DNA of 64,000 nucleotides from Saccostrea cucullata. Lineage: Eukaryota. Shown here piece after piece: positions 47,301 through 50,741 of this stretch (position 1 is its first letter; each line of letters starts with the position of its first letter). The stretch lies in assembly GCF_032062105.1 (NCBI RefSeq), contig NW_026934507.1:434001-498000 (forward strand), in the 5' to 3' direction. The position numbers and the translations under genes are program-made. Under the pieces are notes generated by a model that searched no databases, was not told the DNA's origin, and worked only from the letters and a program-made list of their open reading frames with translations.

Positions 47301-50300
47301 AAGAGGCTAATTCTTATCCGGTAAAAATAGAATTTCTTATATAATATTAATTTTGTAAATAAATGTCAGTTATTTTTTAGAAGATAAATTATAAAACGGC
47401 TTATGCAAACTACGGTCCTGTGTACATTTTCGTATAATTGCCCATTACTTGTCAAAATAACTGATAATGCTTCTACATTAATTGTAAATAAAATGGCGAA
47501 TTCCTTGTTGCAGGGCACGGATATGCCTTTTTAGGTTCCTACATTATTGAGGAAGTAATCCGAAATTTGATTCCACGGGGCCTGGCTAAGGCGAAAAAGC
47601 TGTTCTTAACAGGAACTAGGTAGGTTAATTTTACAAGACTTATACGGACTGAAAAATTCTAGAATATCTTGAATAATATTTGCTGTCAAATTAGGACTGT
47701 ACTCAAATTCATAAATCAAATAAAGGTCGTAAATTATAATGCAGCAATATGTACAGAAACTAATACACTTATTAAAATAATGAAATGTACCTCTTTGATT
47801 TCTTTAGTGCTGGTGGCACGGGCGTCTTAATGAACCTTGACCGTGTAGCAGACCTCATGAAAACATTGGCCCCCGGGGTCGAGGTTCGGGGGATAGCCGA
47901 TTCTGGTTGGTTTTTAGACATTCCACAATTCAGCGAAAAGCCGTGCACAGAGCCTTTGTCCTGTTCCCCGACCACAGGGATACGGAAGGGATTCGAGTAA
48001 GTAACCCCGCCCCATCCCCTCCTCCAACATTGTAATGATGATATTCACTTAAAGAATATGAGTTCAATATCAGTAGGACTATTTTATTATCCGTTTTCAA
48101 TAAGTAACCGAAAAGGTAATGAAATTGTAATCAAAAAGTTGTAATTTGCATAAAGGCAAAAATTAATGAATCGAACTGAGCATTTTTAAATATTACAGAA
48201 TATCGGGAAATTGCAGAAAAGCTGCTGTGTATATTTGTATATTGTCTTTAACAGTTGGGATGAAAGGACTCTTGATTTTGTGTTTTCTTCACACCAATAA
48301 TACTCTGAATGGCATATAAATTAAGGAAGCACTCTGTGCCTCAACCCCGATTAAAAATTTTGTTCATTAGCTTTAGCTTTATGAAAGTGAATAGCTAATT
48401 GCGAAAAATCAAGAAAATAAGGAATATTTCTTTATATCTCATATCCAACAAGTCCATATCATGACTTCTTTGAAGTAAATGAAACAAGGATTTCTAACAC
48501 TCTATTTTATTTTCCCTCGCCTGTAATTGAATTGAGCTTGATTTACAAATATCCTCCAATTTTAGACTAAATTAAATCTTGATTCCCGCCCTTAAATTGT
48601 GTCAGGTGCAAACTGCTTTCATCTTTCCGATCCCGATCGTTTTAACATGTTCCAGTTTTTTCTCCCAAACAGTTCCTTTGTTTACTAGGACATAACCCAG
48701 TGTTTACAGCTCTAGGTTCAAAGGACTTTATGAAAACTATACACTATTGATGGTCTTATTTAATTAGATACCCGATATTTGAAGTTTTCCTTTGATGTTC
48801 GTGATTGGAGAACTTGTAGCTTGACCATGAGAATTCGGAACAAAACGAGGGCTTAGACCTCTTTTATATATTTCCCCATTTCCATTTTATCAATAATTAA
48901 TTAGCGTATATCGATCAATTCGATGCATGCAAAAAATTACTATTTATTCTAATGTGGAGTAATAATATTTATATTTAACATTATGTTACAGTCAGTGGGG
49001 AGGTCGTGTGCCGGAAGCCTGTAAAAAGGAATATCCGGGCCAGGAACAATGGCGATGTTACTTCGGATACCGGATGTATCCGACATTAAAAAGTAAGAAA
49101 TACAAAGATATTAAAACAAAGTTATCACATTGTTATCACTTACAACGGTGAATATGTACCATTAAAATTTTGGATTAAAAGAATTTGTAAGGAATTAATT
49201 TTACTGGTTCACTGACACATGAATATCTTTTTTTCCTTTCAGCTCCTGTATTTATTGTGCAATACTTATTTGATGAAGCGCAAATATTAGCGAACAATGT
49301 TATAAACCAAAACAAACTGATGAACTATAACGGAAGCAACGAACTTCTGTCTAAGCAACAGTGGGAGTATCTGTACAAGCTAGGGGAGAAAGTCAAACAG
49401 ACGCTTGAAAATGTGACGTAAGTTGATTACTTCCGGCTTGGTGAATATTGTGTTCTTTAGTTGTCTAAAACATTGTATTGACCTCAAAACCAGCAATTAT
49501 TATTGTAGAGTATAATTTATCATTTTCACTCTCATGTTAACCCTAAAAGCTGAATTTTGTTTTAGGTTGTTTCTTTGTTTTATTGTAATATATTTCAAGA
49601 AAATGATTGTTCCTTTGTTACAGGGCAGTATTTGCGCCAGCTTGCCTGTCTCATGAAGTTTTACTCAAAAAGTAAGATCAAAGTTACCAAAAGAATTGAT
49701 TTCATCGTACATACACGTAAAACAATACCCATTTTATTCAAATGTATACTGCAATAAGTTATTTTTATTGTTTTTTACCGTCCACAGGAGTTGGCATTCT
49801 ATATCCGTGAAAGGAATATCCCTGTCTCAGTCAATCTACTGCTGGGAAAACAGCTTCGAAGGAGAGAAATGTATAACTGCCACAAATGGAAGCACAAGGT
49901 ATAAAACAAGGCAACTAACTTTCATGAAGTTTCAATTTCTACTTTCAAATTTGTAAGAAGTGACCAAATTATAGAAATAACTCCAACAAAACGCAATTTT
50001 TATTAAGGTTTATTCAATTTCTAAAACTAACAGAAAGATAAACTGTATTTTCAGTGTTAAACTTATACGTCCATATGGCGATGCTCCTGTCAAAGTTAAA
50101 AAACAGAACAAAAAATCCCAGCGAAAGAAAAAGAAGAAGAGGAAGAAAGATAAAAAGAGAAGACGACGACGAAGGAAGAACAGGAACCGAAAAAATAAAA
50201 ATAGGAAAAACAAGAAAAATAAAAGAAAGAATAGAAAGAAGAAGAGAAAGGGAAAAGGAAGTAAGGAGTGTTTCTTGTTAATGTAGAAAACAGAAAGAGA

Positions 50301-50741
50301 CTTTATTTGAAATGATTTCAAACTTTGAGTTTTCACATAAAATATGAAAGTTTTTTCAGTCATTTTTTCTTCTATAGAATCGACCTTTTGTTGTACACAA
50401 TAGGAAGTCTTCTTTCATTTTTTTTTTTAATTTTCTTTCAATTTATAGAAAATAGAAAAAAGAACAGGTCGCAGCGATCAGCTAAGAATGTCAGTAACTG
50501 CAGCCATCATCTGATAGAACAGTGCCCCCTACCTCAGTGGTGCAATAGCTTTTGTCCCACCTTCCGGAACCAGTATAACGGGAAGGAGATTGACTTTTTC
50601 AAGGTGTTTGCTGCTTCCGGTATGGACAGTAAAGGAATGGCGGAATTGTTGGGTGTGAATATGTCAACAGTAAATGCCATGAACGCTAACACAATCTCAA
50701 CATTATTACTGGACACATTTAGGCAGAAACAGCAGACATAG
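38065..50741 (+). CDS. NOTUM: Palmitoleoyl-protein carboxylesterase Notum (Wnt deacylase), 13 coding exons, 580 aa
   Basis: Hand-spliced exons give a continuous 1743-nt ORF with signal peptide, TCNDGSRAGYYL, WIIFLEGGWYCF, YVPYCSSDSWTG, GTSAGG, DSGWFLD, CYFGYRMYPTL, QYLFDEAQ, FAPACLSHE and the C-terminal C-x7-C...CN..CP motif, all diagnostic of Notum. Confidence 0.97.
43536..43588 (+). CDS. NOTUM: Notum exon 2 (YYLRKSHGSKKWIIFLE)
   Basis: TTTCAG| acceptor and G|GTAGGG donor, in phase. Confidence 0.95.
43685..43783 (+). CDS. NOTUM: Notum exon 3 (GGWYCFDRFSCELRW...WPEFKT; oxyanion loop)
   Basis: TTCAG| acceptor and G|GTAAGT donor. Confidence 0.95.
46560..46620 (+). CDS. NOTUM: Notum exon 4 (GSGILSWDPKENPYYFNANI)
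   Basis: TTGTAG| acceptor and GT|GTGAGT donor. Confidence 0.95.
46924..46973 (+). CDS. NOTUM: Notum exon 5 (YVPYCSSDSWTGTARN)
   Basis: TTCTAG| acceptor and G|GTAAGA donor. Confidence 0.95.
47514..47619 (+). CDS. NOTUM: Notum exon 6 (HGYAFLGSYIIEEVIRNL...KLFLTGT)
   Basis: TTGCAG| acceptor and AG|GTAGGT donor. Confidence 0.95.
47808..47996 (+). CDS. NOTUM: Notum exon 7 (SAGGTGVLMNLD...DSGWFLD...GF)
   Basis: CTTTAG| acceptor and GA|GTAAGT donor; completes the catalytic Ser codon. Confidence 0.96.
48992..49092 (+). CDS. NOTUM: Notum exon 8 (QWGGRVPEACK...WRCYFGYRMYPTLK)
   Basis: TTACAG| acceptor and A|GTAAGA donor. Confidence 0.95.
49243..49417 (+). CDS. NOTUM: Notum exon 9 (PVFIVQYLFDEAQ...LENV; catalytic Asp)
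   Basis: TTTCAG| acceptor and AC|GTAAGT donor. Confidence 0.95.
49624..49671 (+). CDS. NOTUM: Notum exon 10 (AVFAPACLSHEVLLK; catalytic His)
   Basis: TTACAG| acceptor and AA|GTAAGA donor. Confidence 0.95.
49788..49898 (+). CDS. NOTUM: Notum exon 11 (SWHSISVKGISLSQSIYCWENS...NGST)
   Basis: CCACAG| acceptor and AG|GTATAA donor. Confidence 0.9.
50055..50260 (+). CDS. NOTUM: Notum exon 12 (Lys/Arg-rich insert)
   Basis: TTTCAG| acceptor and A|GTAAGG donor; phase 2 in and phase 1 out, which is what is needed to join exon 11 to exon 13 in frame. Confidence 0.85.
50449..50741 (+). CDS. NOTUM: Notum exon 13 (NRKKNRSQRS...CSHHLIEQCPLPQWCNSFCPTFRN...stop)
   Basis: TTATAG| acceptor after a long pyrimidine tract; Notum C-terminal Cys motif; TAG at 50739-50741. 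Confidence 0.92.

Follow-up and report, generated by a model that had tools for sequence, protein, structure and literature searches.

A Notum gene of the oyster Saccostrea cucullata raises the question of why an enzyme of this family should carry a long and extremely basic loop near its C-terminus, and what becomes of that loop in the finished protein. The gene lies in a window of 64,000 bp (contig NW_026934507.1 of RefSeq assembly GCF_032062105.1, positions 434,001 to 498,000, forward strand), and all coordinates given here count from the first letter of that window. We found that the loop is spliced into the message and that it has, as judged from sequence, the organisation of a conserved invertebrate module in which an astacin-type motif, a polybasic tract and a proprotein convertase-type motif follow one another. 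The reading that we favour, with a probability of roughly 0.45, is a tether removable by two cuts: the basic loop would anchor Notum to heparan sulfate and would be excised by a Tolloid-type astacin together with a proprotein convertase, the enzyme being held together by disulfides. The elements concerned are the following, with a slash marking each bond at which a cut is predicted.

49840..49842, + strand: Cys396 of the CW motif, which opens the loop; predicted disulfide partner of Cys501
50055..50260, + strand: exon 12, 206 nt, frame-asymmetric; encodes the D-x-P (Asp-any residue-Pro) motif and most of the polybasic tract
50071..50088, + strand: PYG/DAP (Pro421-Pro426), predicted astacin/BMP-1/Tolloid-type site, cut between Gly423 and Asp424
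50101..50259, + strand: polybasic tract, 53 codons with 39 lysines or arginines (K/R) and 1 Asp; predicted heparan-sulfate (polyanion) tether
50466..50483, + strand: RSQR/SA (Arg490-Ala495), in exon 13; predicted proprotein convertase site closing the tract
50499..50555, + strand: C-terminal cysteine block (Cys501, 509, 515 and 519), packed back on the core in a structural model

A spliced polybasic loop outside the enzyme core

Exon 12 is a real, spliced and frame-essential exon of oyster Notum. Transcript contigs were taken from Logan for 8 of 17 listed runs (seven guessed to be RNA and one recorded as RNA); none is 99% alike to the window, and they therefore come from relatives or from other alleles. 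Contigs X4, X5, X7 and X9, from four studies, span exons 11, 12 and 13 and contain 146, 140, 140 and 140 letters, respectively, where the window has 143, so that the frame is kept, because each length differs from that of the window by a multiple of three. Two more runs (X1 and X16) join the end of exon 12 to position 50449, and in runs X2 and X15 exon 12 lay outside the coverage. Both junctions that the original prediction named for checking, 49898/50055 and 50260/50449, were thus recovered, and no joint that skips exon 12 was found among the contigs of the 8 runs, in which rare forms are dropped. The middle of the exon (50118-50262) was masked as a repeat in read placement, which makes absent depth there uninformative. 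The exon had also been expected to frameshift the C-terminus if skipped, and this was borne out: its length of 206 nt makes it frame-asymmetric, ruling out in-frame omission, and its loss would lead to a stop two codons on. The view of exon 12 as dedicated to the basic loop can be refined: this evidently constitutive exon also encodes the D-x-P motif, five codons ahead of the tract, and the basic run finishes in exon 13.

The 53 codons from 50101 encode 25 lysines, 14 arginines and a single Asp, in agreement with the composition first reported for the exon. Codon usage is mixed (AAG 13, AAA 12, CGA 5, AGA 5 and AGG 4), and across the six frames of the window no other stop-free stretch of 50 residues contains at least 20 K/R. 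The bases of the tract are 88% purine with an imperfect periodicity of 4 and 12 nt, the longest perfect repeat being 12 nt. When these bases were shuffled they encoded 27.4 +/- 2.7 K/R, and none of 20,000 shuffles combined at least 39 K/R with an open frame and no more than one acidic residue; the remaining two frames of the tract itself hold 12 and 17 acidic residues. Slippage alone was rejected as a source of the tract on the strength of the stops and acidic residues that shuffles and other frames would bring in. Together with the mixed codons and the frame-keeping indels, this supports the earlier suggestion that the tract was shaped by selection at the protein level. From Asp424 to Arg493, between the two motifs, the 70 residues have a net charge of +45, and in seven oyster sequences this piece measures 70-74 amino acids (aa) with a net charge of +43 to +46 and both motifs retained.

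The surrounding gene could be modelled completely.

38065..50741, + strand: Notum gene, 13 coding exons, all bounded by GT..AG, open frame, 580 aa
38065-38315, 43536-43588, 43685-43783, 46560-46620, 46924-46973, + strand: exons 1-5
47514-47619, 47808-47996, 48992-49092, 49243-49417, 49624-49671, + strand: exons 6-10
49788-49898, 50055-50260, 50449-50741, + strand: exons 11-13
47618-47619/47808 (Ser207, split codon), 49272-49274 (Asp314), 49652-49654 (His372), + strand: catalytic triad codons

Four solutions of the exon model differed by 3-nt acceptor shifts and the longest was taken. Its product matches the annotated S. cucullata Notum (P0290) letter for letter, and 536 of 583 positions are identical to Crassostrea gigas Notum (P0006). 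The match to the pectin-acetylesterase/Notum domain of Pfam, PF03283 (E 2e-74; 251 bits against a cut-off of 26.6), the predicted fold and the triad place the protein in the Notum family, with removal of palmitoleate from Wnt as its predicted activity. The Ser-Asp-His triad described for human Notum (PMC8172013) is intact here and invariant across 80 aligned Notums (S208, D315 and H373 in P0006 numbering), and all three residues lie N-terminal of the polybasic loop. The N-terminus begins, as judged by eye, with a hydrophobic stretch that may be a signal peptide. Exon 13 has a single match in the whole genome; a second Notum gene without the loop was rejected on this ground, although a diverged paralogue may exist.

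The CW motif (Cys396) precedes the tract, and the C-terminal cysteine block (Cys501-Cys519) follows it. Among 203 anchored sequences, counted after three badly anchored rows were dropped, 185 have both loop-flanking cysteines, nine have neither, eight have the first only and one has the second only; seven of the eight carry a cysteine within three residues of the second position. Because the two cysteines co-occur, we predict that a disulfide between Cys396 and Cys501 closes the loop, a prediction that also draws on the human Notum structure. The cysteine block would then hold the 87-residue C-terminal chain on the enzyme after cuts in the loop. Five long-loop Notums (P0179, P0182, P0193, P0198 and P0202) lack both flanking cysteines and retain a short basic cluster, and in bivalves the first part of the loop contains an additional cysteine (Cys406 in the oyster, 49870-49872) that is absent in vertebrates.

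An AlphaFold2 model of C. gigas P0006 (92% identical; alignment of 80 sequences) had a mean predicted local distance difference test (pLDDT) score of 81.7. Residues 62-524 superpose on residues 86-451 of human Notum (Z 47.2, root-mean-square deviation (rmsd) 1.7, 354 aligned), and the sequence flanking the loop on both sides therefore packs as in the human enzyme, with pLDDT 82-91 across residues 501-540. Scores fall below 50 at residues 405-433, which have no secondary structure, and at 473-500. The tract appears as a single long helix (435-480, pLDDT 61-87 in its first part), which we read as a charged low-complexity helix rather than a docked element. The model thus suggests that the loop lies outside the folded core, with the D-x-P motif and the tract undocked in a region of low confidence. 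Set against Drosophila grimshawi Notum, the fly crystal constructs 4UZJ and 4UZK match as far as residue 395 and resume at residue 595; they therefore delete exactly this loop, replacing all of it with a few residues, so that no solved structure includes it.

Distribution of the loop and its flanking motifs

Loops were compared across animals in a sample drawn from the best 120 of 658 matches and the best 150 of the 50%-identity representatives, plus cluster members. They were excised by profile anchors and one named sequence was kept per genus, giving 76 invertebrate bilaterians, 2 cnidarians, 1 sponge and 51 short-loop vertebrate rows; non-bilaterians thus number just three and xenacoelomorphs zero. 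Omitted were unnamed proteins, second species or isoforms of a genus, and 37 rows without both anchors, among them truncated Octopus, planarian, Phallusia and a tapeworm. Where models differed the longer loop was chosen (Parasteatoda X1, Antedon X1, Ptychodera X1, Branchiostoma lanceolatum and Daphnia carinata).

With a tract defined as at least nine K/R within 15 residues, 65 of the 76 sampled invertebrate bilaterian genera carry one, against 0/51 vertebrate, 0/2 cnidarian and 0/1 sponge sequences. Vertebrate loops measure 15-29 aa with 3-5 K/R, consistent with the short human loop noted at the outset, and those of the sponge and cnidarians 5-11 aa; a planarian loop examined by eye is short and lysine-rich with neither motif. 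Loops of tract-bearing rows range from 67 to 501 aa. The D. grimshawi loop (207 aa, 51 K/R) is polybasic and stands in the same position as that of the oyster. A fly insertion had been placed in this general region; the placement can be sharpened, since the insertion is exactly this loop and is likewise polybasic. Charge density is highest in pteriomorph bivalves, which account for all of the top seven loops (0.38-0.50 net charge per residue), while 40 of the 65 tract rows come from groups other than molluscs and brachiopods.

The 11 tract-negative genera comprise three hemichordates and a tunicate with acidic loops, Ixodes, Odynerus, two cladocerans just below the threshold, and Lottia, Lymnaea and Helobdella, whose loops of 15-17 residues may reflect gene models that miss an exon. 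We suspect this because in B. floridae the current models restore 80 residues missing from an older one. Low-complexity exons may likewise be missed in other short-loop models, the full set being P0039, P0055, P0153, P0034, P0035 and P0065 (Lottia, Lymnaea, Helobdella, two amphioxus and Daphnia pulex). The simplest history that the sequences suggest is that the loop arose no later than in the protostome-deuterostome ancestor and that vertebrates and tunicates lost it afterwards.

The D-x-P motif, which was absent from the earlier description of the loop, is its best-conserved element in the sequences compared. Both flanking motifs were first spotted by eye; they were then counted with each of 33 lineages represented by its first tract-bearing genus, and the segment upstream of the tract was shuffled 3,000 times for comparison. 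Where 5.9 lineages would be expected to show an upstream D-x-P, 28 of 33 do; of 1,600 spaced residue pairs it takes first place, and ranks 2-5 (LxD, MxxD, LxxxP and AxxP) go to parts of the same motif. Over all tract rows it is found upstream in 50/65 and downstream in 4/65. The residue before the Asp (P1) is G, A or S at all 28 sites, P2 is L at 18 and Q at five, and P3 is M, L or P at 24; the Argonauta pick is a neighbouring, non-homologous D-x-P, and S stands at P1 of the homologous one as well. The density of [GAS]-D-x-P inside the loop is 20-fold that in the rest of the 79 proteins (5.5 against 0.28 per 1,000 residues). Examples are PYG/DAP in the oyster, PLA/DAP in snails, MLA/DSP in shrimp, PMA/DDP in amphioxus and LQG/DDP in a brachiopod and a nemertean (NLQG/DDP in Lingula, SLQG/DDP in Tubulanus); Priapulus and Panonychus retain L-S-D without the proline. 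The evidence that the motif has a function is its persistence in a loop that is otherwise unalignable. Two other identities were considered for it and rejected: an autocatalytic Gly-Asp/Pro-His site, as the proline here is two residues past the Asp, and a glycosaminoglycan attachment site, as the motif is without Ser-Gly in most lineages.

The sites resemble those cut by astacin proteases. Astacins favour Asp at P1′, in BMP-1 by way of Arg182, and meprin beta cuts a D-A-P peptide much better than D-P-A (PMC3186203); BMP-1 cleaves the fluorogenic peptide YVA/DAPK ahead of Asp (PMC10696041). The DSP-PP site SMQG/DDPN is cut by BMP-1 and by a zinc-dependent insect-cell activity attributed to Tolloid-related-1 (PMC3398931), LTBP1 is cut by BMP-1 at L-D and Q-D bonds, which its authors link to the freeing of a signalling complex from the matrix (PMC2064503), and BMP-1 removes the lysyl oxidase propeptide (bioRxiv 2026.03.27.714679). 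Like published BMP-1 sites, oyster PYG/DAP has Asp at P1′, Pro at P3′, a small P1 and hydrophobic or aromatic P2 and P3, and it falls within the modelled unfolded stretch 405-433 (pLDDT <50). The Notum D-x-P sites thus fit published BMP-1/Tolloid sites closely, and cleavage there is predicted.

Candidate proteases are encoded in the oyster genome, in which the astacins form a large family of 92 matches. Among twelve loci examined, two proved to be Tolloid-type exons, on different contigs (L002 and L003); the match of L002 to TLL1/BMP-1, at E about 1e-34, is far stronger than that to other astacins. The full-length protein nearest to L002, P0331 (98% over 70% of the query exon), combines an astacin domain with CUB and EGF domains and retains an arginine at the position that aligns with BMP-1 Arg182. 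In its prodomain (~110-190), a long stretch rich in K/R closes with a furin-type site ahead of the catalytic domain. A complex prediction of P0331 residues 191-392 plus zinc with C. gigas Notum 409-441 gave a score of 0.03 and a mark of 0.34; it was made without alignments or controls and is counted neither way.

Downstream, R-x-x-R/S followed by a non-basic residue, searched from the tract start on, was found in 20 of 33 lineages, where shuffles that preserve K/R content lead one to expect 4.4, and RSQR/SA is invariant in 7/7 oyster sequences. The positions of the two sites differ in consequence. As R-x-x-R lies at the C-terminal end of the tract, the tract stays on the triad-bearing chain after a cut behind RSQR: that chain, residues 21-493, contains the entire tract and has a computed charge of about +63. 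With an additional cut near Gly423-Asp424 the chain's charge falls to about +17 and a piece of ~9 kDa with an isoelectric point (pI) of about 12 is freed (values computed one residue off the site). A convertase cut therefore opens the loop, and it is the astacin-type site that would release the tract. The original prediction that cleavage at RxxR would by itself set the enzyme free accordingly needs correcting, for release would take an upstream cut.

Three N-glycosylation sequons, at Asn489, Asn497 and Asn500 (50463-50498), flank RSQR; Asn489, at P5, could hinder the cut and is absent in Pinctada and Mytilus. Alternative gene models differ around such sites: those of Parasteatoda (P0311/P0047) and Argiope (P0316/P0315) by 12 aa in frame that contain a convertase-type site, and those of Antedon (P0272/P0135/P0271) by an in-frame 30-31 aa with a convertase-type site. 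In these gene models it looks as if splicing toggles the cut.

A proposed removable tether and its rivals

The mechanism that we propose begins with what is observed, a loop of +45 over 70 aa spliced in outside the core between Cys396 and Cys501. This loop would bind the heparan sulfate of glypicans with much higher affinity than do the sulfate sites in the core itself. A convertase would cut after RSQR, probably during secretion, producing a disulfide-held two-chain enzyme with the tract hanging as a free tail on the catalytic chain. An extracellular astacin with a preference for Asp at P1′, most likely Tolloid, would then cut Gly423-Asp424 and free a core resembling the short-loop Notum of vertebrates. 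Excision would turn a locally held Notum into one that is more mobile and less bound to glypicans, and the site of Wnt de-acylation would change with it; net Wnt inhibition could go up or down. Both cuts are predicted from the motifs, and we infer binding to heparan sulfate because heparin sites and a dependence on glypicans are described for Notum (PMC8172013) and because the basic domain of the Sulf enzymes does such a job. A heparan-sulfate tether remains the most plausible role of the loop. Protostomes and amphioxus probably inherited the design from their common ancestor, and vertebrates and tunicates are likely to have lost it.

Several observations weigh against this mechanism. Convertases recognise a minimal pattern R-x-x-R and a full pattern R-x-K/R-R; oyster RSQR fits the first and, having Gln at P2, departs from the second. 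The full pattern stands at the terminal site of only 10/33 lineages, and 4/33 are without any site by the pattern used. The furin-type site once predicted at the end of the tract is thus better described as a conserved convertase-type R-x-x-R/S, the Gln at P2 lowering the case for efficient cutting by furin and not that for a convertase-type site. An upstream D-x-P is absent in 15/65 tract rows, including Drosophila and all six tract-bearing hymenopterans, and just five of these 15 (Tegillarca, Panonychus, Macrobrachium, Drosophila and Antedon) have a convertase-like upstream site in its place. Three further pteriomorphs have K or R at P1 of the D-x-P site. Both echinoderms (P0130 and P0272) carry D-x-P after the tract, with Antedon X1 showing K-R/S-A before it, that is, the same two sites in swapped order in a single case, and the hemichordate Glandiceps (P0071) has PLA/DDP in an acidic loop without a tract. 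Because of this reversed order and this tract-less motif, D-x-P cannot always be linked to release of a tether. Nor can D-x-P single out Tolloid in a genome with 92 astacin matches. Cardin-Weintraub spacing is nearly absent from the loop (one XBBXBX and no XBBBXXBX). Finally, the sample, having been ranked by how closely sequences resemble oyster Notum, favours loop-bearing relatives, and the lineages share ancestry, so that the p-values exclude a composition artefact and do not stand for independent trials.

Some of these points lead to a permanent tether, in which a tract bound to heparan sulfate would stay on the enzyme for good, though furin may nick the loop, and D-x-P would be a docking motif for some partner. 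Flies and hymenopterans, with a tract and no D-x-P, are in keeping with it, as is the position of the echinoderm motif after the tract, and in Sulf the furin-cut basic domain remains on the enzyme and is required for its surface location. We nevertheless consider it unlikely, since the conserved features of the motif (hydrophobic P3 and P2, small P1, Asp, and Pro at +2) are those of published BMP-1 sites; moreover, the motif lies in a low-confidence, undocked stretch, and no other known motif was found to fit.

The tract-less Glandiceps site and the downstream echinoderm motif suggest instead that opening the loop may itself matter. On this account a cut at either site would alter activity, stability or clearance, the loop acting as a pro-segment or destruction signal with range as a secondary effect, and the spider and crinoid models that differ by short convertase-site pieces could be understood in the same way. 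The modelled core, however, folds like human Notum with the loop outside it, and the constant net charge in oysters points to charge-based binding, which makes an activity switch rather improbable.

Release by furin alone, with cuts at RSQR and within the arginine run sufficing and D-x-P incidental, could draw on three full R-x-K/R-R matches at residues 450-455 and on the convertase sites at the start of the Drosophila loop. By sequence count, 20 K/R would stay with the catalytic chain after cuts behind residues 453-455; conservation within the loop is highest at D-x-P, whereas the internal sites have no positional conservation, and we regard this explanation as very unlikely. Still less can be said for a use special to molluscs. 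The tract might bind acidic shell-matrix proteins, or the released peptide might be antimicrobial or cell-penetrating, and the pteriomorph monopoly of the most charge-dense loops and the pI of the excised piece would suit such roles. Because 40 of the 65 tract rows come from outside molluscs and brachiopods, though, a shell-matrix tether, put forward earlier, cannot explain the origin of the loop and could at most be an added role. Least tenable of all is neutral low-complexity expansion of a tolerant surface loop by A/G-rich slippage, which the purine content, periodicity and wide range of loop lengths would allow and which the motif and shuffle tests have already largely refuted, given the exclusion of stops and of the acidic residues that the same bases encode in other frames, the frame-keeping indels, and the persistence of charge and both flanking motifs through ten phyla or major groups.

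If the two-cut tether is correct, a wider and more tentative proposal follows, which we think possible but doubtful: the ancestral bilaterian Notum would have been a Tolloid substrate, and the protease that cuts chordin/Sog would also release Notum from its heparan-sulfate anchor, linking BMP (dorsal-ventral) and Wnt (anterior-posterior) patterning. Vertebrates would have lost the loop and would make the released form directly, and flies, which keep the tract, appear to use convertase sites at both ends. Tolloid would then gain Notum as a new substrate, and BMP and Wnt patterning would be coupled directly outside the cell. The size of Wnt domains in development and regeneration is set by the distance that Notum covers, and a protease-removable anchor would give the invertebrate enzyme a layer of control that is invisible in the solved structures. 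The loop would also account for some loop-less gene models and flags them for correction.

Elsewhere in the window, the short frames at 3323-3595 (+) and 51849-52067 (+) have the appearance, judged by eye, of reverse transcriptase pieces from a retroelement, and the frame at 59501-59761 (+) is cysteine-rich and resembles an EGF-repeat exon of a downstream gene. Within intron 9, the stretch 49430-49501 is matched by unrelated contigs from four runs with loose ends on both sides and is a small dispersed repeat.

Comparison with known systems

Notum itself, its dependence on glypicans, the specificity of BMP-1 and furin-cut basic domains are already known. Notum is unlisted in the passages of the BMP-1/Tolloid substrate literature that were examined, and no report of Notum proteolysis or of its polybasic loop was found in the literature searched, which consisted mostly of titles and the beginnings of abstracts, with the text and supplements of the Notum structure paper and the 2002 fly papers outside its coverage. 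The authors of the structure paper deleted the fly loop and hence knew of the insertion, on which their text or supplement may comment.

Human Notum (PDB 4UZ9 and 4UYZ) shares the fold, the triad and the C-terminal cysteine block with the oyster protein (Z 47.2 and rmsd 1.7 over 354 residues), and differs from it in the loop, which in vertebrates is 15-29 aa long and without a tract; the Drosophila structures (PDB 4UZJ and 4UZK) were obtained from constructs without the loop. The closest functional parallel is the hydrophilic domain of Sulf1 and Sulf2, which is, like the Notum loop, a basic domain inserted into a secreted hydrolase that modulates Wnt. The Sulf domain binds heparan sulfate, sets surface location and is cut by furin at two sites to give a disulfide-linked heterodimer (PMC3890690, PMC13405426). 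The Notum loop most likely works in a similar way, by analogy, for no Pfam domain was found in Notum residues 398-580 and no homology is claimed. The Sulf domain is also much larger, acts on heparan sulfate as a substrate and remains on the enzyme, whereas the Notum loop has an astacin-type site placed for release.

Known BMP-1/Tolloid substrates (DSP-PP, LTBP1, prolysyl oxidase and chordin/Sog) are cut before Asp, as predicted for Notum, in which the cut would differ in being internal, in being paired with a convertase cut and in having a Wnt antagonist as its target. Polybasic tails that anchor a protein to heparan sulfate are familiar from extracellular superoxide dismutase and from the long VEGF-A and PDGF forms, whose range lengthens when the tail is removed by proteolysis or splicing. 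Those anchors are terminal and need one cut, whereas the Notum loop is internal and would need two.

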